The notes below the pieces were generated by a model. The model ran no database searches, was not told the origin of the DNA, and saw only the letters and a list, made by a program, of their open reading frames with translations. Below are positions 26,101 through 62,100 of a DNA stretch of 64,000 nt, piece by piece. The position numbers were made by a program, and so were the translations under genes. Position 1 is the first letter of the stretch. Every line of letters starts with the position of its first letter. Origin of the DNA: Candidatus Omnitrophota bacterium (GTDB lineage Bacteria; Omnitrophota; Gorgyraeia; Gygaellales; Profunditerraquicolaceae); contig JAPLLR010000046.1 of NCBI GenBank assembly GCA_026387455.1, forward strand, positions 4,921-68,920, in the 5' to 3' direction.

Positions 26101-29100
26101 CTTATAGCTATTTTATATGAAAAATTAATGAAGTTAAAGGAAACCACGCCGGATTTAATAGATGGTCGATTAATCATAAAAGATGGATTAGGTAAGGAAG
26201 TAGAGGTTCATTCCTCAGCTTGTATAAAGGATGAATATCTACCGACGAAGTTACTTGATTTATATAGAAGCATGCGTAAAGCTAAAGAGTTACCCTTTTC
26301 AATGTCTTTCGAAGAATTTAAATCATATGCCCAGCATTGGGCTAGTTCTATGAATCAAAGAATTGACGCAAACGTCTATGTTGAGCTCGACCATTTCGTA
26401 ATGACGCCAGAAGAGAGGATTAAAGCTAACTCTCATCCTTATAGAGTAGCTCAAGAAGATGGGACGGGTCGTCCGAGTACTATTTTAGGAGATCCAATAG
26501 AGGCAGCTTTCTTAGTTGCTAGAATTACTGATGCTAAGCTGAAGTTAGTCTCCGAACCCTCTTTTGATAAGTATACCCAAGAGGAGCGAATAGCAGATAT
26601 AGCGAATGCTCGGCTTCAGGAGTCAAAGAAAAAAGCAGATTTTGCGGAGTTGATTAGCGGGGAATATGGCATAGGAGCAGATAAATTTACTGGCTTTACT
26701 GCAACCCCTGGTAGGGATATGTTACAGTATTATGGAGTAGGGAAGAAGCAACGCGATATACGCTTACTTGATCCGGAGAAATTAATTAAGGAAACGGATC
26801 GAGATTTTAGAGCGACACTTGACAAAGCTATTGAAGGTCAGATAGATACACATATTGGTAATATTAGAGATAATCCGCGCGCTTTACATTTAGGCATTGG
26901 TAGAGATGCAGCTATTGTAAGAAGAGCCTATGAAACAACAAAAAAAGCGGTAGAAGCTGGAGAATTAGTTAGTTCAGATGGTCGTCCTTACGAAGTTAAA
27001 TTTATTGAAGGGTTTGAACCAAAAACACAACAAGCATTGATGAAGGAGTATAGTAAAGGACGCCTTGAAAAACCGATGATTATATATGTTGTCGGTGATC
27101 CTTCAGGAGGTAATATAGCTGCTTTATCAAGAGGTGTAACATCAGCTGCTACACATCAGCTAACCATGGAAGGTATAACTAATATAACTCAGCATCTAGG
27201 TAGGGCAGGAACAGAAGGTAGGGCCGGAGGTTTACATCCAAAGGATCCAGTGAAATTTTTAACACTATCTTTAGAAGATCAGTGGATTACTCCTAAGCAA
27301 AAGAAAGAATTAGCCGGGTTAACTGGTAGAGACTTGACTAAGAAATTAATAGATATTGGGTATAATATTGATACAGTTATTGGAGAACAAGGTTTTCACC
27401 GTACATTAATTACTTCAGTTTCAAATATACAATATACACAAGCAGAGTTAGCTGCTTTAAAGGCAAATTTACAGGCAAGAAGAGATTCTCAGCGGACACA
27501 AAATAGAGATTTAGGCGTATCTTTGAATGGTACCTTAAATAATGTGCCCGAAGGCGCGCGTAAAGTTATAGAAGCAAAGTTTTCTAATGCTCAACGCGGT
27601 TGGACAATTCCCGCAAGCGATTCTAAAACAGCTCCGCTTAATTTAACTACTGCGGGCAGTCTCGTCTGGCAACAAACCCAGTCACTTATGCATGCTGCGC
27701 AAGACGACCGTAAGTCAATAGCTTCTCTTAATCTTGGTTTGTCTTCAACAACCCAGGCAGCGTTACAGGCAAGAGATTTAACCACGCAGGAAGCTTTTAC
27801 TGCTGTAACTGAGATGGTAGATAATGGCGTTCTGAATTTAGCCCATCCTGAAAGAGGAATTACCTCGTTAGCAGCTATCGGTGGAGCGGTGAGGGCGCTA
27901 AACAGCCAGAATTCGACTCAGCCGCTTAATATAGGTAAGGCTGAAATCGATGATATGTATAATCCTGTTTCCCGCGATTATAGCTTACTGCGTAGTGTGA
28001 CTACACAACTGCAGAATACTAATCCGCAATTAGCCAGAGAGCTGCAAAGTGTTTATAGTGGTACTTATACCACTTCGCAAAGACAAGAATCTATCCGCCA
28101 AGCTGAATTAAAACTTGAGGCTAGGCAGATTCGCTTAGTGAATAACCAAGAAGCAGGATGGGAAAAGACAAAGAGAGGAATTGGTTTTGTTGCTGGCGGC
28201 GCGGTGCTTGGTACGGTGGCCGGCGGTGTCTCCTGGTTCCAGAATAAACAGCGCCCGACAAAAGACGAGATGAAGGATATATACAGGAATACTAGTTTTA
28301 TCTTGTCGAACCTTCCTTTAATAATCAGGGCTAAACCCGAAGCAGGGGTTGCGGTGGCGAAATTATCATTCCTGGCACTGGGAATTGTGCTAGCTCTTAA
28401 ATTAGCGCCCCCAGCTATACCTTTATTAGCTAAATTAGCCGCAAGCACCAGCCTGGCTGGCTTTCTAGCTCCGATAGTGACTTCTTCAACAACTAATCTC
28501 GCGATATTAGCAGGGACAAGTGCTGCCATAGGATTGCCGGCAATGAAAGCTGTGGATGTTGCAGCCAGAAGGCAACAGGTCACAGTAGGCAAGATCACTC
28601 CTTTGGCCCAGGAATTAGGCGTATCCGAGGGGCAGTTAGCTCCATTATTCACTCCGCGCATCCAGCCGCGCGCGCCAAGTGAGATGATTGGCCGTACTTC
28701 TTTCCTGCAGCAGGCTAATCCTAGCAAAGCCGCGAAAATGGATGTTAATAAGTTGGTTCCCGGCCTTAATATGGATGAGGTAAAAGGGTTCGTTAGTATC
28801 TTTAACCGTCCATATCGTAATGCCGTAAATGCCACCACAAAGTTAATAGAAGCCAATTCCTATTTCAGCGCGGACAATCTGCAGGCGCAGGCTTTTAGAT
28901 CGATTAATCTTTCGGCCAAAGCCGAAGAGCAGAGCGAGCGGGAAGCAAACGCAAAGAGGCAGGAGCTAAAGGAGGAAGCAAGGAAGCTTAAGATCCTGAC
29001 TCAGGCTTTATTAGCGCTAGCGGGAAATGAAAGCCGGCCTAATTCTGGTAGAGTAAAATTAAGCCGGGTCAAAGAGAAATTAGAGCGCTCCGGAGAGGAT

Positions 29101-32100
29101 TTGTGGGAGGTAGCAGAGAAGTATCGTCTTATCCAACCGGAAAATGCGGTTACCTTTGATATGGCTGAGCCGGTGGTAGAGAGATTATCCCGCAAGGCAG
29201 GCATCTCTAGAGATGAGGCCAGAGAATTTGTTTATCCGTTGGTAACTCAGAGGACTAACCAGAATATCGCGCAAGACGTGCAGAATGCGCATAATGAGTT
29301 GATGGTAACCATGCCAGTAGCTGCCGATATGATACCTTTACCTACCATCGCCAGTGCGACTAGAGATGGCTCATGGCAGCGCTTTACGGACAGATTAAGA
29401 GAGCGCAATGACGCTGACCTTGCGGAAGCCAAACTTATTGCCGAGGCGGTTAACAATACTCAGGCAAAGGGTTGGAATATTGGCAGAGTTCTTACACATA
29501 TTAGCCCGGAGAATTTAGCAAAGACAAGGCAAGATATTGCTACCGGTAAAACAGATACTAATGTTCCGGAAATTGCCAAGCCTGCTGAGCCGAAAGCTCC
29601 TACTCAGGCAGAGATTCGCTCTAGCCTCGAAACTTTAAGCCAGAAGACAGAACGGGTCACTCTTGCCGGAGGACGCAAGGTAGAGGGAGTCAGGGTAGAG
29701 GCCGGCACAGCGGTTGAGATCAGCAATCACCGTCCGGATGGAAAATTTGTAGCTAAGGATCTAGCCAAGCCTAAGGATACGGCAAAGATTAGCGTAAATA
29801 AGGACGGCTCTGTCTTAATTACTAGCAGAAACGGTTTAGGCGATAAACTTGAGAAATTAATCAAGAAAGAAGTTCCGCAAGCGCCTTATGTAGACGCGGT
29901 AAAGCCGATCTCTAGTATTACGCAGACTGTCACTACGATTGCTGTGTGGGGTTTTAGTGTTGCGATTGTTTTAGCAGCAATGCATACCGGTTGGTTTGAC
30001 CCCGCAGCATTAGCGCATCTTGCCGGCTGGAAGGCGTTCTTAGCCAAGGGAATCATTAACGGATCGGTTATGTTGGCAGCTTTGACTTTGCATGAACTTG
30101 GTCATGCTGCTGTCGCTTTCTTTGCCGGAGACAAGAGCCAGAAGGTCAGGGACAGGTTGACGCTCAATCCGCTTAAGCATTTAAGCGTATGGTCTTTACC
30201 TATATTAGCAGGATTACCGGGCGCGGCAAAGCCGGTAGAAGTCAATTTTGGCAGATTAAATGACAATAAGGTGAGGGCAGTAGCTGCCGCAGGTCCGGCA
30301 GTTAACTTAGTTACTGCTGGCCTGGCGCTAGGAATATTCTTATTGACCGGTAATCCCACGGTTGCCTTGTTCGCAAAGCAGTTTGCAATTATCAGCGCTG
30401 TGCTAGGTACCGTTAACCTTATTCCATTTGCCCTTCCTCAATGGATAAGTAAGTTTATCAATAAAGGCAACAATAAGCCGGTATTATTTGACGGCGCGCG
30501 CGTGATCTTAGGCGCGAAAGAGAAAGTTTCGCCTAAGATGCAAATGGTAGGCGGTGTTGCCCTTATGCTTTATATGTTCGGGCTTGGGCCAATTCTGCAA
30601 GGACTTGGTTTTGGCGCTGGATTAGGCGCAGGCATGGGCGGCGGTGGAGCCGGTGTAGGAGTAGGCGGCGCAGCAGGCACCATCGGCAAAGGTAGTGGTT
30701 CTGGCGGTGGCGCTGGCAGAGGCACAGCTGAGGTTAAGAGAATTGAAGAAGATGCCAAAAAGGTCAAGCAGTGGTTTAATGATGATTTGAAGCAGATAAG
30801 AGAGGCAAGAGAGGCTCTAGACAGACGGCTGAGAGAGTTACGCAGTCTTATACCTAAACCTCCAATATTAAGCGAAGAGCAGAGAATATTTACTGAGAAT
30901 ATCTTCAGCCGCATCTATCCGCGTTTGATGACTGTCGGAACTCGTCTAGTGGATAATTACCAGAGACTAGCTGGTGAATATGGCTTAAAGCCGGGCAATA
31001 TACGTCTTTATGTGGTTGGAGGCACTGCCAAGAATAAACAGTTAATCGGCTTCAACAGTGATATTGATTTAACTTTTGTTGTAGAAAATTCCGCTGGTTC
31101 TTTAGAGGTCCTGCCTAATAGAGAAGAGTTAGTGCAGAGCCTCTTTGCGGACACGATAAGAGATGTCTTCGGCGATGCCACTGATCAGGAGAGGGCAGCC
31201 ATCCGCGGTAAACTAGATATGTTAAGGTTAGGAGGAGCGCTGAATGAGATTAATGGTCCAGCATTGCTCCTGGCTAGCAGCGAATCCAATAAAGCGCAAC
31301 AGTCTTCACCTAAGCCTACTCAGCCTACTGGACAAGGTCAAAATAGGCATCAGGAGACTCCGATTGCCCCGACACCATCCACGACTTTGCCAACTCAGGA
31401 GCAAACCGGAGAAAAATCGCCTCTCAGAGGAGCTGTGGTGGGCATGTTTGGCTCAAGCATTGGCGTAGGCAGCCATCCGATAGACATGCTCGCGCCTTTA
31501 GATACCTTAGGTAATACTGTCAATTCACTACAACATTTACTCAGTATAGGTGCTGCACAACGTGTGCTTAGCCCGGGTATTCCCGGGGCGACTGCGAATG
31601 CGCTTTCGCAGGTCGTCGGTACGACAAGTGCGCACAATATAGTTACAATAGTTGCAGTAGTAGGATTAGTTGTAGTAGTAGTCACAGTTGGCGCAATAGC
31701 TCTGGTTAATAGCTTCAGAGCAGATGCGAAAACTGCAGGTGCAGGAAGTGTAATCAGCGGAGACGCTGAAAAGACCAGTGGTTCCCAGTTTGCGCCCGGT
31801 AAAGATGCCGGAAACAAAGGTTCCAGAGGTGTAACCGAAGGAACTCGTAATGGCACGGGGTTGCCTGTAGGAAACAATACAGGTAATACCGGAAATACTG
31901 GTAATGCAGCTACTGGATCCAATGGAAATAATGCAGGTTCTGGCAAGAGAACCGGTGGTTGGGCGAGTGCGGTCGAATTAGTAAGAAAACTGTCTTCATT
32001 TGTACGTATCAAAGGTCCCGCAAATAGCCTCACTCCCGCGCAAGTTGTGTCGGAAACCTATGGCGCTCGTGGTCCGCCCGCAGCACTAACAATCATTATA

Positions 32101-35100
32101 GCTACTTTCGCCGCTACGGTAATGCTGGGCAACATCTATGCCGCATCAGCGGTAACGGTTGCCGGTTTACTCGGCGGATTAGCCATAACAGCCCTCTCGG
32201 TAATTGCCTCCTTTAGCATTAATCATATATACTCCTCAAGACTTTATCCGCAAGACGGCCAGGCCAGCATTATAACCACAGGCGTCTACCGTTATTCTCG
32301 GCACCCGCAGCATCTTTGTCTGCAGTTATCCATGCTTGGTTTCTTGGCGATGTTCCCCACAGTTTATACCGCCATTACCGTCATCGCCGTTGTTTCATTA
32401 TTCCATCTTGAATCCAGAAAAGAGGAAGCGAAGTTATTAAATGACTCAAAGCTGGGAGCAGATTATGCCGAGTATCTCAAGAATTCCGGCTTGAAGATGC
32501 TCCCCAGAGATATTGCTAAAAAGATTAGGCCGTATACTTCTTCCGTGGCAGGAGTGGTGACGGCTATTGTTGTAATCGGAGGCTTATTAGCGGCCCCCCT
32601 CCAGGGATCGACCCCCGCTAAAGCCTCCGATACAACGTATACTACAACCAATCCAATCAATAATATAAATTTAACCAAGTATGGCGAGCCTTCCGTGGCA
32701 GGAGTTCGTCGTACAAATGTTGTATCAGAGGGCTCCACAGAAGGCCGTCCCTCCAGGACATTGACCCCTTTTGCCGGAGCCCTCTTTACAACTCAAGGAG
32801 GTGTACTATGTGCCCTATTAATATTAACACTATTAGCATTGACCACATCGTTGATTTTGGCAAGGACCGCACCACTTTCGCAGCAGCCCGTGAACCTGAT
32901 ACGCACCACCTTAGGATCTTCCTTATTTATCAGGATACTGGCAACGTCTACACTCGTAACGGCCGGGCTGATAGCTGGGAGGAGCTTATTGGCGGCAGGC
33001 GTGATACCATACTTGAGCGCGTTCTTGATGCTCGTAGGAACGGTGTTCCTACTTATCGACTTAACGGTTCGCACGAATAAAATAGGATTAACGGTTCGCA
33101 CGAATAACAATAACATAGGAGGTGTAAAATGTGCACAGATTATAACGAATTACAATTCAACCACTTCGTCGTTACAGCCGACGGCACAATCTTTGGAAGT
33201 GCTAGACACGAAGGTCACACCTACAACTTTATTCTCCACGGCAACTATGTCCAGGCCCAACACGGTGAACAATGGATCGATCTGGACACGCCTATCGCAG
33301 AAGTTGTCAGGAGAAGGGCTCAATCAGCCTACGCTATCGCTCCCCGGTACAAGGCCAGCAGGTTCATCTTCGATTAGAACTGCCGGAGCAGTGGTAGCTT
33401 TGGTGTTGGGTGTGATTCTTATTGCCGGCGCGCTGGCAGGCATTCCTCATGGAGTGGCCCCTGTCAGCGCCGCCGTTGCATTGGGGATGTGCAGCCAGGA
33501 AGGAGTTGCTACCGAGGAAGATAGCTTTAGGAATTTAAGGTTAACCCCTGATTACATCCGAAGCGTCCGCTTCGATGAGGAAGAAATAAGAGGGGCGGAT
33601 GAAACTGAACGCCGCATCAATCTTCTTATAAAAGGTATGGGGGACTCTAATTCTCCTTCCGAAATTGGAATAGTAAAGATCCCGGGAAGCCTGAAACGGG
33701 ATAGCTGCCGGGTGTTCAGGTTCAGTAATATAGAAATGACATTTTTTGAGGTCACCAGCCGCTTTGATTCGCAGGAAGGAAGATTCTCTTTGCCGGCGTT
33801 GCCTCAACAGCATGCTTTCCTGATTTCATCAAAATCAAATGATGTCATAGGGCACGGAATCATTAATCGGCCTGTCGGTATTAACGATGAAGTATGGTTC
33901 AGGTATGCTATCCACGGCGGACCTCACAGCAAAATTGGAGCTGATTTCCGGAAAAAAGATTATTATGGGACCAAGGCTTTGGTTTTGATTATGGCGATAT
34001 GTGTAAGCAGCGGTATTTTCAAGGGCCCTGTGAATGCGATTACAACATATTTTGAGAGAGATGAACAGCGCGCTGATCCGGAAGCAGTTCCCGCGGGTAA
34101 GAAATTTATATATGCCAGAGGATGTACTCCTGTTAAGGATAATGATTATTCTCTCTGGCAGTTTAGAATGGATGGTAAAGCCATACCTACCGTAGATGTA
34201 GATGAAAAAGAGCTTGCTAAGCTTGATGGTCGGTCAGCGCAGGAAGACGACTTTGTGGAAGTCAAACTCGGTGACCTGGTGTTTGAGAACGGTCAGCTTT
34301 TCTACCGCCCGAAGGCAAAACCTGAGGATTCAAAGGGCTTGTCCGGTTTTGCGCTTAACTTGAGCCTCTGGCAGTCAGGTTTGATTGTCACTGCAGTTAT
34401 CGTTTTAGTCGCAGCTATAGCCGTAGCCGTAATGGCTAATAGCGTCAGGGGAGATATTTCTTACTTGGATAAGGCTAGAGTTATTCTAGCCAGCCGCTAT
34501 CTGGAAGATTATCAGCGCAGGCAGTTGTTTACGAGAATGGCTAAGGGAGAAATCAGGTTTACCCAGGACACTAGGTTCAGCGACGAAGCGGTGTCCATAT
34601 CAGGAAAGTCATTAAAAGATATTGCCCAGGAAGTATTAAAAGTTATTAATTACTATGAAAATTCGACGCCCTCAGTCAAGGCCAAGGGCACCAATATTCT
34701 GGCCAGACTGTTTTCTTCCCTTGGTTTTATAGTGTTTGTTATTGTGGGTATATATGAATTTGTCTATGCCATGTCTGATTATAACGATGGCAGGGGCAAA
34801 AATTACGCTGCTATGAATAATGTGGATGAACTTAGCTATTCCGTTAGAGATCGTATTTGGGCTTCTCAGGAAGAGTTCATCAGATTATTAGGCGAGGATC
34901 CCAGTAAGGCTGTAAAAGCCGACAAAAAAGAGAAAATCGGCAAGGTAGCTCAGATGTTGGATTTCATGAATGTCCATCGCCAGGCCATCCAGAAATATGC
35001 CGATCAGTATGGAATCGATCCGGAGCTACTTGCCGCGATCCTCTTGACTGAAAGACTGGATATGTTTGAAGGAGATTTCCCGTGGGAGGTTAATACTGAC

Positions 35101-38100
35101 AGATGGAGCGTATTAATCGGCCGCGATGCCTCCGTGGGTATCGGTCAGGTGCGCATGAGCACTGCCCGTTCACTCTTAAAGGCTGCCAAGTATCCTGAGT
35201 TTAAAGGCAGGAAAACCAATGTCTCCAACTGGAATCTTTATAAGATGCTCACTAATGAAGATCCGGAGTTTAATATTATGATAGCGGCTATGGCCTTAGC
35301 AGATGTAAGGGACGGTATTGCCAGGGATATTAAGAGCAGCAGGTTGCCGCAGCTTAATGCCGAGCACTTAAGACTGGAAATGGCTTATCGTTACACTTCT
35401 TCCTTGAAAGGCCCGGTGGGTGCGCCGGTAAGCTTCGCAGAGTATAATAAACAGATAGAGAATAAAGATAAGAAGGCGTACAACAGGTCACAGGCAAATG
35501 AGTATGCTTATTGGGTAAGAGCGAATAGGGATTTAATCCGCGGTTTATCCATCTTTACAAATGCTCCCATAGCCAGAAGCTCGCTGCCGGCATTCAGCAT
35601 CTCAGGGGGATTGGATCTGATAGTGGCATTAGTTCTGGCGGTAGTAATTATCGATGCTATCTCGGCGACTTGGAGATATGTTGATCATAAGTTAGGCGAC
35701 CGCCGCGCAAATGAGAGAAAAGACGGATTGTACGCATCTGATAAATATAGAGAGTTTAAGAATAAGGATAGGCAAGAGAAGTTGAACGAGATCAAGGGGC
35801 AGTTTAGGCGCGTAAGAGAAGTAGCGGTATTATGGATAGGGTTGGCAGTCGTGGTGGCTGGGCTGAAGTGGGGCCTGAATAATTGCCGCAAAGACAATGC
35901 TCCGAGCCTGCGTGAAATTGCAGCTGAAGTTTGCGCTGATGCCCAGACCATTAAGGATGAAGGTAATAAATTTATCCAGTGGGGTAAGGAAAGATTCAAT
36001 GATCCGCGCTCTTTCGGGCAGCAGGCTAATTATGCTGCCAGAGAGTTTGGCCGGGATCTTGGCAGTGGTTTGAAACAGAATGAATTGCTTATGCAGGGCG
36101 TAAGCGGAAAAATGGACGGCGAGTTTGCCCTGAAGAAGATAGAGGAAATCAGGGAGGAAAACAGAAAGCAAACCACCAACTCCCTGCCGGCAATCAGCAT
36201 CATCGCGCCAGCAGCGATAATTTCCCTGGTTGCCTTAGCAGTGCTGGTTTATGCGATCTATAGGATTTGCCTGGTTAATAGATATTCCCGCGATAGAGTT
36301 ATAGATATGGTTGCTACAAAGCTGGAAGATAAAATAATTGTTGATACCGAGGAATTAGCCGAGACCAGGATCAGTGGATTAAATGACGCAGAAGAGCGCT
36401 TTGTCCGTGCGATAGTATTGGCAGAAGAGGCGCTTAAGGTCAGGGACCATGAGTTAATGGCTGAGGCAGTAGCTGGACTTTTCGTGGAAACAGAAACCGG
36501 CATAGATATTAAGCTGTTGAAGGATTACTTGGGATTAAGAGAAAAATATGAGAATCCGAAGATGTCTCGTGAAGAAAAAAGAAAGACCCAGCTATCTATA
36601 GCCAGGCATGAGGTGAAGCACGTTATTTCCGGCGTTATGGAAACTCCTAGAAATTCACAGCAGAAGCTGCCTTACTTCGCATATTTTTCTCCCTCCAGCT
36701 TTGGCGGCAGCGTCCAGGTTTCTGTTACTTGCGAGAATACCCGGAAAGCGATCCGTAGGCTCCAAGATATAGAAGCAATCGCCGGCCGAGTCTCAAATCG
36801 TCTCAATAAAGAGGGAGTTATAGATTACCAGGGCCTGGATGCTGAGGCTAATTTTGGCCTGAAGGCAAAAGAGGTGCGTTTTGTCATGGCGATAGTTCAG
36901 GCAGAAAGGGCCATGCGTAAGGCCAAGTCTGATTTAATGGCAGATGCCATCGTAACGCTTTTCACCGCTAAGGAAGTTTCCGCGGATGTATACTTCCTTG
37001 AGAGATACCTGTCCTTAAGAAAAGATTACGAACGCAGAAGGCAGGCTGATGAAGAGGAAGGGCGAGGCAAGGCGCATCATGAAGCCAGGCTGCATATTGT
37101 CAGGTCCGAGCTAAAAGATGTCCTTTCTGCCGTAATCAATATTCGCAAAGAGCAAGGTATTCAGCTGCCCGGATTTGCATACTTCTCACCGGCAGCCTTT
37201 GGCGGCGGAGTTGCAGTTTCCGTCAGCAGCGCAAAAGTAGAACCCATTATCCGTAGAGAGGTTGGCAGCAGGTTTAAAATCGGTGGTACTGAATATAATG
37301 AGGCGGATTCCAGTCGCGGGCATCGCATCGCCGGAGGAAAGGCTTGGAATATTCTGGCGGATTGGGATGTAAACACTGAAGGCGTTTATTTCGAAATGTT
37401 GAAAAGGTTAAGCAGCAAGGGTGTTGATTTAGCGTCCGTCTCAGCTGATGGCCGGGCTGATGTCTTAAGGGAAGTCTTTGATACTATCTTGAATCTTGTC
37501 CCCTTCAATGCAAATTTTGAAGGCCTCAGCAAAATCGGTAAAGTATTCGAGCAAGGCGGAGTCTGCAAGCATCATGGCGTATTAATTGCCATGTTTGTGG
37601 AGCGCATACTTAACAATTATAGCTCTAAATGGAAAGGCGCAATTTACTTTGTTTACGGCCCCAGCCATAATCCCACCCATGCCTGGGCCCTTTATGTGAC
37701 CAGGGCTGGAGATTATTGCGTTTTTGACGTAACACAGAGAAAGATCGTTGGTCTGGATGGGCAATTTAGTTGTAACGATCAAGGCACAAAGGTTCCTTAT
37801 TCTGATGGTGTAGGTATGAATGATATCATCGCACGCACCAACGCAAGATTACGGGAGAGCAAAGAAGAATCAGATAACTATAGCGTTACCGGCTTGCCTA
37901 CATTTGGAGAAGCGATTCGCAGGGATCCCCAGAATCGCAGACCGCCCTCTACTGATGATAGAGAGTTGCCGGCACTTGTCTTCGTAGATACGCAGACATT
38001 AGTTGTAGTAGCTGCGGTGGCGGCAGTGATTATCGGCGCAGCTTACCTTGTTTACCGGGTCTATAACGGTTATATGAATCACAAAGTAGCAGTGGCAAGC

Positions 38101-41100
38101 ATAAATGAGATGGCCAGGCAAGCTAGCCGCGCGCCGAATAATATGTTTAACCGCGCCAATATTGTACGCATATCCGTATTACTTGCCGCAGTTATTCTGT
38201 TAATCTCCGTAGGATTATTCCATTTCGTAATTCTGGCAGCAACCACAGTAGAAGCAGATATCGAAGAAACAAAGTCTAGGATCAAGGCTGAAATATTAAG
38301 GCTTAGCGGTTCTGTATATGACAATGAGAGGTCTAAAGTAATAGCCGAATTCTTTAAAGGTTTGCCGGAGCAAGACCTTGCTCTGGCAGTGGATGTACTT
38401 TTGGAATTATCCGATGATCCTAGTATTGGACAATGCTGCATAAATCACTCTATGACCCTTTCTCTTGCAGAGAGCTGCCGCGTCAGGCCGGAGCTTATGG
38501 AGATAGTGGCTTCGAGAATTGCGAATTTAATAAGTCAGGGCATAGGCAGGAAGGCTATGCTGGTAGAGATCATCAATTTATTTAGTCTGGTATCTTATGA
38601 GAACCGCGTCTTAGGAAAATCAGATTTCTCAGCGATGCTCTTGTGGAAGATGCAGGAATTAGGCATACCTATGCCGAGAATTATGGAATTGTTGGGTGGG
38701 TGTTTCAAGACCTGGCGTGAAGATTTGGAATATGATTATACATGGCCTGAACAATCTCTCGGAGAGAGCATTGGTTTAAATTGCAATGGCGGAGCGGTAA
38801 TATTGAAGTCCATTGATAAGAGCTGGTATTATATTTTTAACACAGACAATGTTTGTATAGGCAGCGCGCTGATTAGCTGCGCTATGCAAAGGAATGCAGC
38901 TTACCTTTATATTAATATATGGACTGGAGCAGGCAAGGGCATAGGGACTGAGATTATGCGCTTTGTCGCCGAAAAGATAAGCAGAGTTGATGGGCCCAGC
39001 GTTATAGGGGTATTTGTCCCGGCGGACAAGGATTATGTAAGATTCTTGCTGCGCTGCGCAAAGCTGGGAGTTATCAATAGAGTTGAGCTTAAAGTCGAAG
39101 ATAGCGCTAAGTATATCAATAGCGTAGGCATGGGCAATTGGAATATGCCGGAACAGTCTTCGGGTTGGCAGGTAATTACGAATGAAGCAGAGATGGATAA
39201 TTTTGGCAAAGGCAGAATATTTGCCAGATGCATTGTAGATGCAAACCAGCCGCAGACTCCTTCCGTGGCAGGAAAGAATGCGGCTACTGACAATAAGGGC
39301 ACGGAGGAACAGAGAAAGGTAAGCTCTTCCGTAGCCCTTGTTACAGACAAGCTTGGGGTGCTGGTAGCGATAGTTGGAGCATCAATTCTATTAGCGTTGT
39401 CAGCGAAATTCTTAGGGCTGGCTTTATTAATCGGCGTTGCAGCGGTAAACAATGATGATGCGAAATACGTGTTGAATATCGAACTCCTCAAGGCAGAGCT
39501 TGTCAATAAGGGGATTCTTCGCGATAAAGATCAACCGCTTAATATTAATCCTGCAGTATTAATTGCTGTTAGCGATTTCTGCTATACCGATGGAGAGTAT
39601 TTGGTAGGAAGAGAATTCCGTAGGCTTGCCAAGGCATTAGGGCTTGTGATGAGGGAGCTGGAGAGAAGAACCGGTAAACCGGCTGCAGAGATCAGTCTTA
39701 GCCAGAGCAGCCTTACCAAAGAAGAAATCGCAAACATCTTAAATGCGGCTAAGGAAGAAGATTATGCGCAAAGAGAGGTAAGCGCGTTCTCCAGAAAGAT
39801 AGAGCTTGGCCAGAGGTTGCTTAAGGGCGGCACTTCTGCCGAGACCATCCTGCAATTCTTAACTGGTAGATTCTTTGGGGCAACCTCAGGGTCCACTAGG
39901 TCTATCAGCGCTACTGAACATAAAGTGAAAGATTTACTCTTTGATATAGATCATACCCAGGAAGGCAAGTCTTTGCGTAAGAAAGAAGAGACAGCCAGAT
40001 TACTGAAAGAGCTTCTCGGCCAGGTGGTGATCGACAATGTCAATATTCCCAAGTTTTTCGCCTTTGATATCGATGACACCTTAACCAAAGCAGACATTAA
40101 ATCCTTTAACGCTATGGTTGAAGTCTTAAAAGAAGACCCATCTGCATTTGTAGGAATAATTACCGGAACAGGCGCTTTTGACCTGAATTATGATTCAGAA
40201 GAAGAGCGCATTGCTGAGAAAGACGCAATATATGACACCAAGATTAAGCCGGCTCTGGTTAAACTTGGCCTGAACCCGGATCGCCTAGATTTTGTTATCT
40301 CTGTTGTTTCTACTCCAAAGCCGAGAAAGCAATGGACTGAGTCGCCTATGGTTAATCCTTGGGTTAGCATTAATGCATACTGGTGTGTAAAGATTAATGA
40401 CGGAAACGGTGGTTTTATCAAACAGTATCCGACAGAAAGCAACTTTAGAGGTATAAATAAGCTCACCGGAGCCAGCAAATTATTCGAATATTTTGCCCAT
40501 AAATTCTCTAACAACGCAACAGTTTCTTGGGAAAGGGCAGCTCAGTTGGCTACTCAGTTCCTGCATAGGTCAGTATTGGTTATGGCGGATGATGATCTTG
40601 AGCATGCGCGTATTCCTGTGATTTGCAAGCCTACCAATAGCAAGGAAAAAGGTATGTTGCAGCAGCTTGGCGCTCATTCGCGCGAAAACGAGATACAGGA
40701 GCCTTTCGGAGTAGGCAGGATTTATATTAATACTAACGTTATCAAGTGCCCCTGGTTAACCATCGAAAAAGCTCCTGAAGAGTTTGTTTTTGATTTTGAA
40801 ATTGATGTCATCCTGGGTCTGACTACATTGCTTGAGCATATGAATGACCCTAAGCGTAACGCGCGTATCTTTAACGTGGAAATCGAAGCCCATCGCGTTA
40901 AACCGGTTAACGGTACTGCTAACGGTAATTCCACAGATCCTCAGGTCGCGACTTACCGCGCTCCCGGCTCAAGGGATAGGGGCGCGCGCAAGGGCTTGCC
41001 CAAGGAGATCAGAAACGCCGAAGAAAAAGATTCCGCGAACATCAGGCAATACTTGCTTGACGATGACGGCGAGGTAGCTAAGCTCATCGCAGGGCGCAAT

Positions 41101-44100
41101 AGCAGCGAATTAACATATTACGGATTCTATAAGAAGCTGGCAGAAGAGATCCTGCCTCAGGGCAAGGTTATCTTTAAGGTTATACCTTCCCAGAATATGG
41201 GCTTCAGGAGAGACGACGGCGATAAGACCTATATCTATGCCGTCGGCACAAAAGGCGATATTACCTATATCTATGTCACTTCTGCTTTATATGAAAAGAT
41301 CAGGGCAAGCACATATTTCAAAGCTGCCCTTTGCGTCCATGAGGTAGGCGAGACTAGAGACGTGTTCAATCACCTGACTGCCATGAAAGAAGAGATCCGC
41401 TTTTCCAGCGATCCGAAAAGCAACTTAAGCGACATGCAGCGTCTTGTATTTGATTCCGAGAATGATAAAGGAAACATGGCTTACCTATTAAGCATTATCC
41501 CGGATCGCCTTGTCCAGAAGGCATATTCTGATATCACCAGCGAGATGATCAGCTATGTAAGCCTGCTTATCGCCAAGCAGGTGCACGAAAGGCCGGTAGA
41601 CGCAGCTGTCATAGAGGAGGATGCTAATATCGCTGATTCTTTGCGTCATAGGCTATTCGATTCCATAAATAAGGCTACCCAGAATATTAGCATCCTTGGG
41701 CAGGGAGGCATATTATCAGAAGAGGTAAGGGGCGCCCTGAAAACTACCGAAGAATCAATCAACATCATTCTTACTTCCATAGAGGATGGAAAATTGAACC
41801 CCATAGCCAAAGACGCAGCGATCAAATTGCTTAAGAAACAGGCCAGGATCCTTAGGGAATTAACAGAAAATATGGCTTATTTGGAAAGATTCGAATCTTT
41901 TAATTCTCTTAAGAAGGATATCGATGAGTTCTACAAGAGGGTAGTTGAGGGGACACCTACGGTGGTAAAGGACCAGGAGCTGATTGACCTGGCTGATTTT
42001 ATGCAAGCCATCCACACTGAGCATTATGGGTATGGCTTTAGGCCGGTTGTTTCTGACCCTGGAATGCCTTTACCTATATTAATTAATGCGCATGACCTGA
42101 TGAGGATCTTTGAAGATCTATTACAGGCAATAGCTAGGAGAGCACATAAATCTAACACGGCAGTAGTATTTGTCACTGAACCCGGATTAATTAAAGTGAT
42201 TTTTAAGAACACCGATGCAGACGTAGTTGCTGTTCAGGCACTGCTGGAGAAGTGGCATGGCAGGGCATATCGTACACAGATAATCGGCACTTTAGGTGAT
42301 ATCGTCTTAGAGTTCCCTAAGGCTTTCAAGCTCTATCAGACTATTTCAAATGAAGTATTGGCTCAACTTGCAAATACAGATTGGGTTGTTTCTGTCTGTC
42401 AGCATAAAGAAAACCATGAGAATTTTATTGTTGATGAAAAGGTAAGTAGGATGACCGTTTACGGCCAGTATCTTTCACATGGCATGTGTCCGCAGTGCGA
42501 AAAGAAGAATCGTCCTGTTGAGTCAGAAGCTCAGGCAGCCGCAGCGAAGGTTCCGTCTGCGCCAACCAAGATCAGAGTTTTGTTTGTGGATGACGAAAAA
42601 GCAATTAGGGATATGATGGCGGGAAGAAATAATATGCCAGGATACCTGGCGATGATAGCTAAAGATAAGACAGTGAATCTTTCTTTTGAAGTGGTGATCG
42701 CGGAAAACGCCCAGAAGGCGCTTAACGCGTTTGTAGATGCCCAAAAGAAAGGACAACCTTTTGACTTAGTGGTCACCGATATGTCCATGCCGAAAAATCC
42801 TGATGAAGAGATCGAAGGCGGACGTGAATTAGCCCAGGCGATTAAGAAGATTGCACCCCAGACTTATATTATTATGGTCAGCGGTCATCACAGCCAGATG
42901 ACAGAGGTGGCCCAAGCTATCAAGGAAAATGTAATCAATAGTTTCTACACCAAGCCATTTATCGGAGAGGCAGTTAAGGAAGCGCTGCTAGGGTTTAAGA
43001 CCGCGCCCAACCTACAGGAAAAAGCACCTGTTAAGCAGGATGTTAGTATACTTGGTTCTGCGGCTGCCAGTGCCACAGCAGCGGCTACAGCAGCGCTGGC
43101 TTTCTACGCAGCAAAGGCAGTGATTATTTCCAGCTTTCATCCTTTCGCCATAGCGTTATTCGGAGTTTTAGCAGCAGTGTGTTTTGTCTCTGCGGCATGG
43201 GCTTATCTTTTTGGTTCGCAGGCTATCAGGCTATGGTTAACCAGGGCCAAGCCTGTACGCGCGCCTCCTGAGGCAAGAGCCAGGTTAGAAGCACAGCTGC
43301 AGGATTTCTTCGGGCCTGATGTCAAGGTGGTTCTGGAATCCGACTGTAAGACTATTGCCTCAAGCGATAAAGATAATAAGACAGTATTTGTTGATATCGA
43401 TTGGCTTTATAGGGTAGCTCCCCGCGCAACTGAACTTACCTCGTTCCAGAAATCTCTCCTCACCCATGAAAAAGCCCACTTAAACGGTGCCACAGAATCA
43501 GAAGCTTATATTGCCCAGGTTCTCGCTTCCCTTGTCCAGGATATTAATAATGCTAAGGGCGTTAAATTATGGGCGCTGTTCCTGGGTGTAGTTACATTAT
43601 GCCTAAGTTATAATAAACTTATTGCCGCATTTCCGATTTTAGCCACAGGCTGGATCGGAGTCCTTCTTATTGGCACAGCACTGGTGTTGTTGGGTGTTAA
43701 CTTTGTGCTTGCAAAATTCACCAAGAGAGGGGCTTCAGCTTTCTTTACCACAGTTGCATTGACTTTCTTCTTTGTCGGTCTTCTATTGGCGGTGGATGTG
43801 TTTAACCCGCTTTACGGAAATATCCTGAAGAGCTGGTTTCCGCAGACATGGTTGGCTTACATTGCTGACATGCGCGGAGCGGCAATAGCGATAGTAGCTT
43901 TTATTTCTCTGATCGTTCTGCCGGCTTTGATCAGGGAATATCAGGATAAGTTGGCCAAAGAGGATATCTATAAATACGATATCAAGGCTTTAAAAGATAA
44001 TCTTCTCAGGTTTATTAACGACGACATCAAGGATGAAAAGGTCAGGCAAAACTATATTGATCAGGTGGAAAGAATTGCTGTAAATAATTCTCGGGCAAAT

Positions 44101-47100
44101 AGAAGATACCTGCGCGATGTGCTTATGGTGCTGGAATGGGAGTTGTCAAAACAGAATGCTATCAAGGACCGCGCCTCATTGTTCCCGACTGCCCAGGAGC
44201 GTAAAGACGAAGCTGCAAGCGTTGATACGCAGAAAGCTCAAGACGCCCAGAAGGCCGGAATTGGGGCGATAGCTAAGGTTTCTTGGTTAGGCGTACTTTG
44301 TTCTTTTATCGGTCACAGCATCCAGGAGAGGGAAAAGAGGTTCTGGGACAGGGTTGCGGATTATTCCGGAGCTAGGAAGGTCTTTTACTTTGTCTTCGCT
44401 TTAGTTGCATTCATTCCTAGTTCAGCATTGGGGATAGCATTGCATTTTGGCAAGGCAGCCAGAGATTTCTTTATCCGTCATCAGGATAGGAACAACGAGG
44501 AAGCTTTTAGAATGCATGGCATGATGGCTGGTAAAGAGCTTTTGAAATTAGCCGACGCAGAAGAGCATGTAAGGGCTGCGTTTATGATGGCGGATAGGAT
44601 CAGCTTGAGCGGTAAACCTTCCGCCAATGTTTCGAATAGTATCAGGTTAAGCAAGAGGGGAATCTTCTGCCGGGAATGGTGGCGCTATCACTGGTTTGCC
44701 GCCAGAATGCGTTGGCCTAATGTCACCGGTGCCCTCTCATTTGTTAAGAGCAGGGTGGTCTTATTGATTTGCGGTTCCATCATCAGCTGGCCGATTGTCT
44801 ACGTTCTTTGCATACACTGCCCATGGTTGGCTAATGCTGTTCCGTTAATCAAGCCGCTCTTAGATGGCTGGGCTGTCAAGCAGGGCTTCCCGATTACCTG
44901 GGCCGAAATCTTGAAGATATTCTTCCTAGAGCTCTTCCTTACCTTCTTCCAGAACCCTGGTCTTCTTAGGGATGAATTATTGCGTTTTAATGGAGCGCAG
45001 AGCATTATTCAGGTCGAGCCCGGAAAGGCCAGCGCAAATATTGATAGGGGCATTATAAAAGGATTAAATGAGAATAATATGAGCACCAGGAAATTATATA
45101 ATGCCGGCTATGTTATCTTTACCGGAGCCCCGCATCTGAAGCTATTATTTGAGGAGAAGTGGGGAGCCTCCCGCGATAGCCATCCTTTGATTACCCTGAA
45201 AGCTTTCGCAAGCAATATCCTTAACGTAGCTACTTTAATGGTCCCGCTAGTAGTTATTCCCACGATGCTTTATACCTTATCTAGCTGGCATGTAGCATCA
45301 GCGGTCCTTATCTTATCGCTTTCTTTAGTGGCCTTCTTGGCTCCCAGACAATTCTATGTGTATATAGCGTTTAAACTCTCTCCGCCAAAAGACAAAGAAG
45401 CGCAGGATAGGTTGAAAAGAAGAATAGTGTTCGCCGCGGCATTGGATAAGCAGAAAACTGATTTCTTAAAGGGCGCGTGGGGGCTATCCATCATCGGAAT
45501 TGAAATCGGCGCCATCCGTGAATTAGGTCACCTGATACAGGGCCCGATAGGCACCATCGCTGATATTTTTGAAGGGCCGGAAGGCGCCCTGTCTCTCGGC
45601 GGACGCTTCTTCTCTTACTACGAAAGCCAGATCTGCGAGCATGTCTTTGGAATGCAGATTGACCAGCAGGATGAGCAGGATAAGAAAGAAATAGTTAGCC
45701 AGTTCCTTTATAATTACTTCGGCGGTAAGGGCCCGATGGAAGCAGCGTTTGCCTATGCCAGCTATCGCAATCGCGAATATTCCAAGGCCGCGCAGCTTAT
45801 GTCTGGCATCGTGAGTAGGTATGATTTAGATCAAGAAGGCCGTAACTTGACTGACAATGTCATGAAGGCTAGCGGTGAAGGCCTATCAGATAACCTTGGA
45901 AAGGCGATGAGGGAAAACGCCGAGGCCAGGGAAAGGCTTGCCAAGAATCGCGATAGATGGATAGCAGATATGGCGGACAGTCCTTATTTAAGCCAGGAAG
46001 CGTTTCTGGGTATGTTTGGCGTTGACGGATTCGAGCACTATTATAACGCTGTTGGTGACAATAAGAATAAGCTGGATCAGACTTTGCCTAATTCAGTCAA
46101 AGAAGTAAGAAATAATCTGATTCAGACAGCTCAAGTTGCTTTTGAGAAATGGCTCGTCAAAGGCGGGTTAGCAGAAGATTCCTTGCCTGTCGAGTTGATA
46201 GTAGCCAGGCAGTCTGATGTGGCTGAACCGGTTTCTGGCCAGCAGCAGGTGGCGGTATTAAGAATAAACCCTTTAACCAAGGAAGCCAGGATTTACTACT
46301 GGACCTCAGATGGGGAAACGGCTAAAACAGAAGTTTCTTGGGCCAATATTAGCGGAATAGTGATACCTGAAGGATTAAAGCAGTCTGTCATTGTTCTGAC
46401 CTCTCAGGAGCTCTTGACTGGCGAAGGTAAGGATGCCGGGTTCATCGTGCAGGCAAAAGGCCTGATCGAGGCGGTGTTAATTGATATCAAAAAGACCAAG
46501 ATTACCCTTGCAGAAAAGGACATTGATACCAGGGTGCTGGAGGAGCGTAAGGCAGAAGCGCTCAGGATAAAGGGCGTAAGCCGCCAGACTGAAGCCATCC
46601 ATATCAACGGAAACGGTAACGGCGAAGACACCCAGAGCATTATGGATAAGTTGATCAAGTTGGGCCCCAAGACCTGGCGCCAGCTTTTGAGAGGAGAGAA
46701 TCAGCAGGATTTTGTGAGCGTGATTAAGGCCATGGAAAGGGCTGGCTATCTGGATGACTGGAGCGAGGATGGTTTAACCGCAGCCATGGAGGCCTTCTGC
46801 AGGAGCAAGGGAGATTTAGATTTTAGGAAAGATTTCGCGAAGGTAAAAGATGCCGTCGTCAAAGAGCTGAGGGAGAGGGTCGGAATAGAAAAGGAAATAG
46901 AGAAGATCAAGGTAGAGATCAAGAAGGTTGATCCTTTAGAAGAGGGCAAGAAGAAAGAGCTCAAGATTAAAGAAGTAATGCTTGAGATAGAATTAGCCCA
47001 GATGGCTAGCAAAGTAAAGGATGCAGTCAGGGAGACCAAGGAAGATAAGGCAAGCGTAGCCACCAAGATAGGTAATTGGATTGGTCGCCAGAAGACAGAG

Positions 47101-59100: not shown

Positions 59101-62100
59101 GGCCTTGAAAGAGGAAAGATGATCCAGCTCATCCTGGTCCATGAATTAGGCGCGCGTTTCGGATTTGCCCACGAATCCAACATCAGCCTTGAGGAGATCT
59201 ACAAAGGTTATATGGGCTGGGGCTCTGAACAGGCTAAGGCCGGCGAGGAATTGCTGAACAGATTAGACAATTTATTCCAGAAGACCCACACTATCGTAGA
59301 TTACAATTATGACGGTGATGGTACAGACCTTGCAGCCGCTGATGCTGCAGGCGACGCAGAGCCGTTGGCTCTGGATCCGTTTGCTCCCGGGACTACCGAA
59401 TACGAGTTGGTGCACGAGAGCGCGTTCCTGAGTCTTTTTGGCGTGAGCAGCTATGATGACTGGGTTGCATCTTTTGGAGAGGATTCCGCTGCCCTTGACT
59501 GGGTAGGCGGCAGGGCTCAGGAAGTAAGCAGTAATTATGGAGGCAGCGTCAGCGCTTATATTAATGATCTTACGGTCGTGCAGTCGTTATCTACGGCTTT
59601 AGGTAGCGCTTCTATGGGAGCAAAGACGATTTTCGAAGGCGCTTATCAGGTGAGCATTACTCAGCTTACTTGGCATACTACTGCATATATGACCGAATTG
59701 TTTAGTGTTGTGGGCAGTTCTGATTGGGAAGGGGTAACACAGTTCATTGATTTCTTAGAGAAAGTCGCTAACTTTGACGCAGCTCTTAAGTCAAGCTCCT
59801 ATAGCACTCAGATAGATGCCGATATCTTATACAGCGCTTTTGGCGTGCGTTTCTTAGATGGCATCAGTAAGGCAGAGCTTGGCATAATCGGAGACGAACA
59901 GTACGGTATACTTTATGACGAGCAGGGTAATGTCAGGGATGCCAGCGACGCTATTAGTTTCTATGAGTCGGTGTATCTGTTCTACGCCGCTTGGCAGTCC
60001 AGTTCTGTCTCAAGCCAGCTTAACTCTACCATATTTGTACCTGCTTTCGGTCTGGATATTTCTAACGGCATACAGGCCGCTGACCTGGTCATCTTCGGCA
60101 ACCAACATTACGGGCTGCTTTACGATGAGTCCGGCAACGCTAGAGACGCCAATCAAGCCATAGATTTCTATACCAAGGTATATCAGTTCTACGCCGCCTG
60201 GCAGTCCAGTTCTGTCTCAAGCCAGATTAATTCCACGATTTTTATCTCGGCCTTTGGCCTGGATCTTTCTAACGGCATACAGATAGCGGATTTGTTAGTG
60301 TTCGGTAACCAGCAATACGGATTACTGTATGATGAGTCCAACAACGTTAGAGACGCCAATCAAGCTATAGATTTCTATACCAAGGTGTATCAGTTCTACG
60401 CCGCCTGGCAGTCAAGCTCTGTCTCAAGCCAGATTAATTCCACGATCTTTATCCCAGCTTTCAGCCTGGATCTTTCCAATGGTATACAGATAGCGGACCT
60501 GCTGGCATTCGGTAATCAGCAGCAGGGTTTACTCTATGACGAGCAAGGTAATTCTAGAAGCGCTAGTTCCGCTATTGAATTCTATGGGGCAGTATATCAG
60601 TTCTACGCCGCCTGGCAGTCCAGCTCTATGGCTAGTCAGGTCAACGCTACTTTATTCATTCCTGCTTTCGGTCTGGATCTTTCTAACGGAATCCAGGTTT
60701 CAGATTTGCTCGCGTTCGGCAACACGCAGTATGGCTTGCTTTATGATGAACAGGGCCACGTCAGAAGCGCAGATGCGGCTTTAGATTTCTATATTTCCGT
60801 TTATCAGTTCTACGCCGCATGGCAGTCTAACTCCTTTGCCAGCCAGATAAACTCCAGCATATTCATCTCTGTCTTCGGCCTGGATCTTTCTAACGGTATC
60901 CAGGAAGCTGATTTAATCATATTCGGCAACACGAATTATGGATTGCTCTTTGATGAGCAGGGCAATTCCAGGAATCCCAACGACGCCATAGATTTCTATG
61001 AGGCGGTGTATCAGTTCTACGTCGCTTGGCAGTCTAGCACTTACGCCGTAGCCATCAATACCCTGATCTTTAACTCCGCTTTTGCTGGGCTGGATCTCTC
61101 AGATGGTATTCAGATGGCGGACCTTTCGGCATTTGGTAACAGGAATTACGGCATACTGTATGATCAGGCAGGAAATTTAAAAGACCCTAATGCCGCGATC
61201 GATTTCTACGAGGCAGTAGTAGAGTTCTACAACGCCTGGAATGCCTCTAGCCTGAAGAATGACATCAACAGCATCATCCTCGGCCCTGTCTACGGCATCA
61301 ACTTAAGCGACGGTATCAGCGAGGCAGAGCTTGCCGCCTTCGGACGCAACGACCAGACGACCGGACATTACAATCCGCTTTATGACGATCAGGGCAATCT
61401 CAGGGATCCGCAGGACACCCTGGACTTCTTCGCGGCAGTGGTCAGCTTCTACAACGCCTGGAACGCCTCTAGCCTGAAGAACGACATCAACAATATTATT
61501 TTTATTCCTGCATACGGTTTGAATCTGGCAGATGGGTTAAGCGAAAGTGAGCTGAGCATAATGGGCGATGGAACTTTAGGCATACTTTATGAAACCGCCG
61601 ACCACTTAAGGGATGTAGATAGGGCCATGGAGTTCTATGAGGCCATAATCGTCTTCTATCAGGCCTGGAACGCTTCGCCTTTAAGGAATGAGATCAATAC
61701 ATTGATCCTGATCAACGCCTATGGTATCGACTTATCTGACGGCGCTATACAGTTAAGCGAATTGAGGGCTTTGGGTATCTACGAGTCTATTCCCAACGCT
61801 CCGCTTCTATATGACGAGAACGGGCAATTAAGGGACGCCGCTGACACAATGGATTTCTTTGAGGCGGTCGTGGGCTTCTATCAGGCTTGGAATACTTCGT
61901 CTTTAAGGAATGAGATAAATTCCCTCATCTTAATATCCGTCTACGGCATAGACTTATCCGACGGCATTAATATTTCCGATATAAACGCCTTCGGCAATAA
62001 AGACCCGAATAAGCCGTATATGTTATATGACCAGGACGGCAACCTGAATAACGCATCTGACATCATCGATTTCTTTGAACTGGTGGTTGAGTTCTATCAG

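Follow-up and report, generated by a model that had tools for sequence, protein, structure and literature searches.

Giant proteins of the Omnitrophota have been described in three papers. Seymour et al. found open reading frames (ORFs) of >20 kb in most Omnitrophota classes and a protein of 39,678 amino acids (aa) with 42 transmembrane (TM) helices in Velamenicoccus archaeovorus LiM (PMC10066038). West-Roberts et al. (2023), with a set of 46 giant proteins, reported N-terminal C39 domains beside signal peptides, many TM helices, a range of highly divergent domains (methyltransferases, peptidases, SLT, HAD_2, HATPase_c, and CheY-like receivers among them), and a conserved upstream locus resembling a type II secretion system (T2SS), and they proposed a model of prey cell-wall degradation (10.1101/2023.11.21.568195). 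The catalogue of Nielsen and Lui (2026) holds 916 giant proteins, 94% of which have TM helices or a signal peptide; it counts Response_reg (105), HATPase_c (136), GNAT (93), and HAD (74) domains, contains a C39 architecture cluster, has T2SS/type IV pilus (T4P) and transposase genes flanking the giant genes, and consists to 80% of singletons at the level of sequence clusters (10.64898/2026.06.07.730766). The length threshold of the class is ≥10,000 aa for Nielsen and Lui and >30,000 aa for West-Roberts et al., and the hosts of these proteins are ultra-small predatory or episymbiotic bacteria. Here, we describe a stretch of 64,000 nucleotides from a Candidatus Omnitrophota bacterium (GenBank assembly GCA_026387455.1, contig JAPLLR010000046.1, positions 4,921 to 68,920 of the forward strand; hereafter, the window), in which a single ORF encodes at least 18,620 aa of a giant protein. 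Our data point toward the region at 30030-45400 (about aa 7,297-12,420) being the membrane-embedded core of an Omnitrophota-type giant protein of the Archaeovorin-like multi-enzyme class, a reading that we regard as probable.

The giant gene and its membrane-rich core

An earlier examination of the letters and their ORFs (the sequence-only reading) had taken the region for part of a single polypeptide crossed by many TM helices, and both statements are borne out, the second at the level of hydropathy. Over 8140-63999, the frame of the giant gene has no stop codon, whereas the two remaining + strand frames contain 1,318 and 1,709. From base composition, such openness is expected by chance with a probability of ~1e-484, and the GC content by codon position is coherent along the ORF. 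The start codon is directly preceded by a TAA. The general layout is as follows:

8140-63999, + strand: giant ORF, ATG start, at least 18,620 codons, open to the window's last complete codon
8236-8292, + strand: N-terminal hydrophobic anchor or signal-anchor, aa 33-51, from hydropathy
28177-45342, + strand: TM-rich central region, aa 6,680-12,401, ~38 hydrophobic helices with soluble loops of 4 to 1,219 aa between them

Helices were called by Kyte-Doolittle hydropathy only (19-residue window, threshold of ≥1.5). About 40 peaks were obtained, comprising the N-terminal segment, the ~38 helices of the central region, and a weak one at aa 15,871. The N-terminal segment is followed by ~6,600 residues without any helix, the ~38 helices are concentrated within one block of 5,700 aa, and a second arm of at least 6,200 aa, free of TM helices apart from the weak segment, comes after this core. 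Cysteines are distributed in a similar way: 41 of the 57 in the giant protein lie in aa 8,001-13,000 and 5 in aa 1-7,000. Both arms are nearly Cys-free; S, T, N, and G are abundant in them, and repeats occur. Exported bacterial proteins are generally Cys-poor, and therefore, the composition of the arms fits that of exported surface material.

The assignment to the described class follows from the combined fit on length (at least 18,620 aa, against a threshold of ≥10,000 aa), the N-terminal anchor with a C39 domain, the richness in TM helices, the multi-enzyme content, the flanking genes, and the orphan status of the sequence. As to the content, several unrelated domains are present in one chain; C39, ICMT, and Response_reg exceed their Pfam gathering scores, and M50 was recovered by phmmer.

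Some further features of the arms were observed. Several diverged internal repeat families occupy 15300-24800 (+ strand, aa ~2,400-5,550) in the N-terminal arm, for example, aa 5,078-5,285 and 5,308-5,506 with 41% identity, and this arm has no Pfam match except C39. In the second arm, charged residues are unusually frequent in aa 13,001-16,000 (D+E, 17-18%; K+R, 14-16%), suggestive of extended helices or coiled segments. As far as it lies within the window, this arm closes with an array at 59716-63147 (+ strand, aa 17,193-18,336) of ~16 tandem repeats of 69-71 aa with a mutual identity of 35-75% and DNA periods of 207 and 213 bp. A Pfam Glyoxalase match at aa ~17,400-17,900 was rejected as spurious, being summed from tiny matches in each 70-aa repeat. 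Likewise, the antisense ORFs at 31395-32033 and 39033-39506 (− strand) were regarded as by-products of the long open frame.

Enzymatic and signalling modules

Between the helices of the core, the sequence-only reading had listed an M50-like HExxH, a minimal nucleotidyltransferase motif, an ICMT-type methyltransferase, an SLT lytic transglycosylase, a transglutaminase-like core, a GNAT-like loop, a HAD DxDxT motif, a degenerate kinase-like ATPase with a CheY-type receiver, and a second HExxH in a polytopic segment, and it had added a C39-like core at the N terminus. Profile searches missed about half of the modules on this list, and therefore, the list stands only in part. The whole giant protein as available was scanned with Pfam in 21 overlapping chunks of 1,200 aa, and aa 7,260-8,459 were used as the query of a full phmmer/HMMER scan against 1.8 billion representative proteins. 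The modules with database matches are as follows:

8512-8934, + strand: Peptidase C39-like domain, aa ~125-265 (Pfam E of 9.2e-8, 32.4 bits against a gathering score of 22)
30034-30612, + strand: Peptidase M50 (site-2-protease-type) intramembrane metalloprotease, aa 7299-7491 (phmmer and motif columns)
30781-31362, + strand: probable minimal nucleotidyltransferase-like soluble module, aa 7548-7741 (G7627-G7628, D7641, D7643)
32080-32601, + strand: ICMT/PEMT-type membrane methyltransferase, aa 7981-8154 (Pfam ICMT, 30.3 bits against a gathering score of 24)
34942-35484, + strand: SLT/Tse3-like (goose-lysozyme superfamily) candidate muramidase or lytic transglycosylase, aa 8935-9115 (no single significant match)
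42571-42999, + strand: CheY-type receiver, aa 11478-11620 (Pfam Response_reg, 37.1 bits against a gathering score of 30.2)

The C39 domain, which lies outside the core region, keeps C135, H222, and D238. In the case of M50, the module's own Pfam score of 24.2 bits is under the gathering score of 27.2, but hundreds of proteins of ~200 aa match aa 7,307-7,431 in the phmmer scan with 40-50% identity and E values down to 2.7e-14, and the four relatives checked with Pfam (4/4) are above the M50 gathering score. Closer inspection of an alignment with 12 relatives revealed that all invariant columns are kept in the giant protein, namely, HELGH (H7318/E7319/H7322), NLIP (N7426, P7429), and FDG (D7451-G7452); the sole difference is a 17-aa insertion between NLIP and DG. 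The zinc site of the proposed protease is thereby conserved. The ICMT module has the RHPxH and EE...Y..Y motifs as well as flanking TM helices, and its closest relative, with 40% identity, is the corresponding module of P0001, a fragment of 2,400 aa spanning an entire 7.2-kb contig of a metagenome-assembled genome (MAG) and carrying a GT1 domain as well. The receiver aligns with CheY and Spo0F over its entire length, and the full set of D11484, D11485, D11547, S11581, and K11605 is intact. It has a 14-aa insertion after beta-1/alpha-1 and is located just before a polytopic block; a recognisable HisKA/HATPase_c partner or output domain was not found in the giant protein. For these four modules, the original proposals hold.

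The nucleotidyltransferase proposal is upheld in part. In the full-library scan, the module matches P0105, a protein of 167 aa, and an internal segment of P0100, which has 3,340 aa, with E values of ~1e-8, and all three share LY[VM]VGG-x11-SDIDL, which corresponds to the hG[GS]...DhD signature. Pfam NTP_transf_2, in contrast, does not match the giant protein and matches P0105 weakly (E of 0.006, under the gathering score). Judged from this sequence signature, aa 7548-7741 are probably a nucleotidyltransferase-like module.

M50 and nucleotidyltransferase-like modules were also seen inside other very large proteins. One locus (L013, a contig of JGI 3300037067) has a 3,036-aa ORF adjoining an ORF of >4,710 aa, and another (L011, GCA_964374105.1) encodes a 3,340-aa protein with no Pfam match at all. 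It seems that oversized membrane proteins repeatedly make use of such small enzymes as building blocks.

For the SLT lytic transglycosylase, several weak signals coincide. Within aa 8,935-9,055, Pfam SLT_2 (E of 0.1), Pfam SLT (E of 0.42), and NCBIfam MltB (E of 0.07) fall on one stretch, and a PDB sequence search of the segment (E of ≤10) gave six entries, all of which are Tse3 (E of 0.17). With E values of 0.07-0.42, none of these four matches is significant, but the alignment with Tse3 places I8967 and E8971 on Ile246 and the catalytic Glu250 and G9000-x-G9002-Q9003 on G-L-G-Q, with a distance from Glu to Gln of 32 residues compared to 30. Furthermore, an AYN motif at aa 9,113-9,115 (Y9114) is a candidate for the third SLT motif. 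Glu250 of Tse3 is the experimentally identified catalytic residue, and Ile246, Gly276, Gln280, and Tyr376 are conserved with SLT enzymes (PMC3792639). By this alignment, aa 8935-9115 likely belong to the SLT/goose-lysozyme superfamily, and the suggestion of a cell-wall-acting module, in the form of an SLT/Tse3-like domain predicted to cleave the glycan of peptidoglycan, appears plausible.

The further elements of the core are recognised at the level of motifs, hydropathy, or internal comparison:

36250-37284, + strand: tandem duplication of a ~170-aa helical module, aa 9371-9715 (internal comparison)
37537-37749, + strand: transglutaminase/papain-like Cys-His-Asp set C9809/H9847/D9863 (motif level)
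38812-39144, + strand: GNAT-like loop region (TGAGKGIGTEIMRFV), near aa 10262 (motif level)
40027-40629, + strand: HAD-like set FAFDIDDT 10640, GIITGTG 10672, MADDD 10815 (motif level)
42007-42339, + strand: degenerate histidine-kinase-type ATPase-like stretch, aa 11290-11400 (motif level)
43072-45342, + strand: last polytopic block with 12 hydrophobic helices and HEKAH 11776 in a juxtamembrane loop (hydropathy)

The motifs named by the sequence-only reading are, by eye, all in place. The transglutaminase-like set reads GVC(9809)KHH ... TH(9847)AW ... VFD(9863)VT with the spacing expected of a triad, and the HAD-like set offers, by eye, candidates for motifs I (D10643, D10645, T10647), II (T10675), and IV (DDD10817-19) in the right order and spacing. 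The GNAT-like motif, also found by eye (WTGAGKGIGTEIMRFV), has only the G-K-G-I-G loop of motif A (Q/R-x-x-G-x-G/A), the Q/R being absent, and the ATPase-like stretch resembles a HATPase_c/GHKL domain but has neither the N-box Asn nor DxGxG (G1). What failed to materialise is a profile match: the transglutaminase-, GNAT-, HAD-, and HATPase-like segments and HEKAH have no match with an E of ≤1 in Pfam, NCBIfam, PHROGs, or PDB sequences. The PDB sequence matches listed for the HAD-, transglutaminase-, nucleotidyltransferase-, and GNAT-like and HEKAH segments were rejected as spurious. A third HExxH, HEVKH 9490, lies in the first copy of the duplicated module (aa 9,371-9,545) and is replaced by SELKD in the second (aa 9,546-9,715), and therefore, it is probably not catalytic. 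The duplicated module, which ends in L-P-x-F-A-Y-F-S-P-[SA]-[SA]-F-G-G, has no database match.

It is imaginable that only the four or five profile-supported modules are real and that the region is mostly an anchor, the transglutaminase-, GNAT-, HAD-, and kinase-like elements, the second HExxH, and perhaps SLT being chance resemblances or decayed remnants within linkers. The five modules without a database match, the loss of HEVKH 9490 in the paralogous copy, and the missing N and G1 boxes of the HATPase-like stretch speak in its favor, as does the fact that the motif patterns were picked after the sequence was seen. On the other hand, the composite motifs are rare in shuffled sequences (transglutaminase set, 0/2,000; SLT set, 10/2,000; HAD motif I, 67/2,000), and three HExxH motifs were observed in the giant protein compared to 0.15 expected, a comparison that is indicative only, since the shuffled patterns were written after inspection of the sequence. 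Moreover, the three HAD motifs are properly ordered and spaced, four SLT-related models converge on one place, and GNAT, HAD, HATPase, and SLT are recurrent and reportedly very divergent in the class. Single-sequence AlphaFold2 models of the SLT-like segment and of aa 10,590-11,640 both had a mean predicted local distance difference test (pLDDT) score of 35, with the receiver as a control at ~54. We consider a mere anchor possible but doubtful, although it is the most serious competitor of the multi-enzyme core.

The leader and the upstream genes

Upstream of the start codon, the giant gene has a leader with three elements:

7853-7880, + strand: near-consensus sigma-70-type promoter, TTGACA-16 nt-TG-n-TATACT (11/12 hexamer positions, extended -10 TG)
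7893-8001, + strand: cyclic di-GMP (c-di-GMP)-I-GGC riboswitch aptamer, Rfam RF03167 (64.7 bits against a gathering score of 59, E of 5e-13)
7986-8044, + strand: terminator-like hairpin with U-tract (-24.1 kcal/mol, z of -4.3, then UUUUAUUUUU)

The promoter ends 13 nt upstream of the aptamer, which matches the full model (1-80) with an E value calculated for the whole window. The 5′ arm of the terminator overlaps the 3′ strand of the aptamer, and the hairpin is therefore the likely expression platform. This layout is that of a transcriptional ON switch, in which the ligand-bound aptamer would block formation of the terminator, and a cyclic dinucleotide sensed by the leader probably turns on expression of the entire giant gene. 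The main texts of the giant-gene papers contain no mention that we found of a riboswitch linked to Omnitrophota giant genes. The riboswitch fits the c-di-GMP links of West-Roberts et al., since they describe pilZ genes downstream of, and GGDEF domains within, giant proteins (10.1101/2023.11.21.568195).

Further upstream, the window contains the following genes:

300-1640, + strand: 446-aa ORF directly upstream of the secretion ATPases, with a caspase/clan-CD-like His...Cys pair in its C-terminal part
1820-2893 and 2994-4322, + strand: pair of secretion ATPase genes of the T2SSE family (TadA/VirB11/FlaI-like)
4441-5058, + strand: Y1/IS200-like, REP-associated tyrosine transposase homologue, lying after the secretion ATPases and before the giant gene
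5068-6132, - strand: TPR protein, upstream of the giant gene
6393-7637, + strand: secreted-looking protein with a signal peptide and S/N/Y/T-rich low complexity, tandem repeats at 6551-7042

Several Candidatus Omnitrophota MAGs encode proteins with 81-89% identity to the first ATPase, two matching records being labelled Planctomycetales, and the position of the transposase agrees with the mobile-element enrichment reported around giant genes. The secreted-looking protein, whose gene has tandem DNA repeats of 69 and 102 bp, adjoins the promoter of the giant gene. The pair in the 446-aa ORF reads VVDIRGHGSTDG ... IILVESCSSGK, and this ORF has no Pfam and no NCBIfam match. In loci L003-L008 of related MAGs, the orthologous ATPase lies in a conserved block that opens with tRNA genes, and in four of these loci a 6S RNA is found ~7-10 kb downstream. 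The neighbourhood in the window differs by the second ATPase, the transposase, and the giant gene, and the ATPase of the window may be a relocated or duplicated copy. The Omnitrophota loci with an orthologous ATPase do not have a riboswitch.

Mechanism, alternatives, and known systems

In our model, the polytopic core would anchor the giant protein in the cytoplasmic membrane. The loops that need S-adenosylmethionine (ICMT), nucleoside triphosphates (transferase), or a phosphodonor (receiver) would face the cytoplasm, and the outside would be the place of the SLT/Tse3-like loop and both long arms, which might serve there for attachment to, and glycan cleavage of, a cell envelope, be it the cell's own or that of a host or prey. 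Once phosphorylated, D11547 would link the neighbouring modules to a two-component signal, C39 and M50 may act on the chain itself by trimming it or setting parts of it free, and a cyclic dinucleotide acting via the leader riboswitch would turn on the whole gene.

Several observations weigh against this model and against the assignment to the multi-enzyme class. By helix counting, the SLT-like loop and the receiver share one side of the membrane, so that at least one helix call must be wrong if both are functional. Topology prediction from helix parity and flanking K/R counts was tried and dropped as unreliable, a difficulty likewise reported in the published studies of Omnitrophota giant proteins. 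Five modules are known from motifs alone, and both AlphaFold models have a pLDDT of 35. The gene is cut by the window end, so that at least 18,620 aa are seen and the C-terminal part is beyond view. In the 18,620 aa scanned, there is no match to SecA_DEAD, glycosyltransferase, NUDIX, HEAT, or dockerin, which are common among published members, and none to TPR; SecA, missing from all 21 chunks, is not universal in the class and may lie past the window end. The Omnitrophota loci with an orthologous ATPase have no giant gene within 10 kb. Finally, close relatives were not found in JGI metagenome contigs (queried with the ICMT alignment and the 1,219-aa soluble segment), in IMG/VR (queried with the 1,219-aa soluble segment), or in word-indexed protein searches. 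The latter, done with aa 7250-8500, 10426-11644, and 8921-9120, gave no homologues, a negative that is limited by prefilter and database size; since full HMMER found relatives for the first of these regions, it reflects these limits rather than absence.

A self-processing polyprotein, in effect a fused operon, would account for the same modules in another way: its own C39 and M50 domains, perhaps with the papain/transglutaminase-like and HEKAH sites, would cut the chain into numerous separate membrane enzymes and surface proteins. Two intact protease modules are indeed present, one of them intramembrane amid ~38 potential TM substrates, and counterparts of the modules occur elsewhere as free-standing small proteins (M50, ~200 aa; nucleotidyltransferase-like, 167 aa; ICMT, 200 aa). 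West-Roberts et al. raise possible cleavage by C39/S8 domains, but C39 domains can also be non-catalytic and chaperone-like or cleave other substrates (10.1101/2023.11.21.568195). Cleavage sites or repeated linker motifs were not identified in the chain. We deem a polyprotein unlikely; it is compatible with the multi-enzyme core rather than exclusive of it.

Similarly improbable, in our opinion, is an inward-facing scaffold, in which the bulk of the protein including the arms would be cytoplasmic and form a regulatory or metabolic platform at the membrane, unrelated to an attack on the wall of another cell. The receiver, ICMT, and nucleotidyltransferase-like modules need cytoplasmic cofactors, and Nielsen and Lui interpret almost half of the proteins in their catalogue as being anchored by TM helices and having their domains in the cytoplasm, to which they assign the methyltransferase, HATPase, GNAT, and HAD content (10.64898/2026.06.07.730766). 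However, arms that are almost free of Cys, rich in S/T/N/G, and built from tandem repeats are as for exported surface proteins, a hydrophobic anchor precedes the first arm, an SLT/Tse3-like module has no substrate in the cytoplasm, and ATPases of secretion type as well as a secreted repeat protein are encoded in the flanks. That the ORF is a chimera of the assembly or an open frame without function can be dismissed as highly improbable: public short-read assemblies of the same organism are fragmented (in Logan, contigs of 2-5 kb from two run assemblies, with upstream genes only, which stop near the repeat gene at 6393-7637), but the upstream genes are identical in two independent runs, the catalytic residues of five modules are intact, the codon-position GC is coherent, and 18,620 codons are free of stops, against >1,300 stops in each other frame.

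To a bolder version of the preferred multi-enzyme core we give little credence: the 5,700-aa block as a self-contained, signal-controlled machine for envelope remodelling, with a riboswitch licensing a gene of >56 kb, a receiver gating the modules when phosphorylated, C39 and M50 doing the self-cutting, a Tse3-like muramidase directed at the wall of prey or host, and a polyprotein replacing an operon. The prey cell-wall attack contained in it has already been proposed for published Omnitrophota giant proteins.

Giant Omnitrophota genes occupy a large share of very small genomes. The protein described here has a clean anatomy, with nearly all TM helices in one core that carries an intact intramembrane protease, a membrane methyltransferase, and an intact receiver between two nearly Cys-free arms, and it has a candidate muramidase for which an interbacterial toxin is the closest relative of solved structure. 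The leader of its gene holds a promoter, a c-di-GMP-type aptamer, and a terminator. Proteins of this class cannot be expressed in one piece, but in vitro work is feasible with the riboswitch and with modules as small as M50, ICMT, the receiver, and the SLT-like loop.

Comparison with small known proteins shows what is peculiar to the modules. The M50 module resembles small PDZ-less M50 proteins (site-2 proteases) of ~200 aa, with which it shares 40-50% identity over ~125 residues and HExxH and NxxP...DG in hydrophobic helices, but it is an internal module of a giant chain, has the 17-aa insertion, and is 3 bits under the Pfam gathering score. ICMT/PEMT methyltransferases share the motifs and TM helices, and the gathering score is passed; the difference is the embedding in a giant protein. 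In the same way, the receiver passes the gathering score and has the full D-D-D-S-K set of CheY-like receivers of hybrid two-component proteins, from which it differs by the 14-aa insertion and by the lack of a recognisable HisKA/HATPase_c partner or output domain. With Tse3, the T6SS (type VI secretion system) muramidase effector of Pseudomonas aeruginosa, and with family-1 SLT, the candidate muramidase has in common the motif-1 Ile, the catalytic Glu, G-x-G-Q, and the AYN downstream, but the Glu is followed by Arg, not Ser or Gln, the similarity is not significant, and, unlike for Tse3, there is no T6SS context and no immunity gene within the window. The leader has the usual transcriptional layout of GEMM-I (c-di-GMP-I) riboswitches of the GGC variant, with a full-length match between promoter and overlapping terminator; what is unusual is the size of the controlled gene (at least 56 kb), and the ligand of the GGC variant is putative.

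As a whole, the protein does not resemble repeats-in-toxin (RTX) or repeat-adhesin giants, as the sequence-only reading had maintained; membrane-embedded and soluble enzyme and signalling modules are mixed in it. In the part available, Pfam found neither the dockerin domain nor the TSP3 repeats of dockerin-type giants. Precedents with a similar domain mix are published among the Omnitrophota giant proteins. With the Archaeovorin/multi-enzyme class, it shares an N-terminal hydrophobic segment followed by C39, TM helices by the dozen, a single chain that combines divergent methyltransferase, peptidase, SLT-like, and receiver modules, flanking genes for T2SS/T4P-type ATPases and a transposase, an orphan sequence, and a neighbour gene that points to the Omnitrophota. 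It differs in the packing of its TM helices into one 5,700-aa block and in M50, ICMT, the Tse3-like muramidase, and the leader riboswitch, which are not named in the main texts of the papers on the class.

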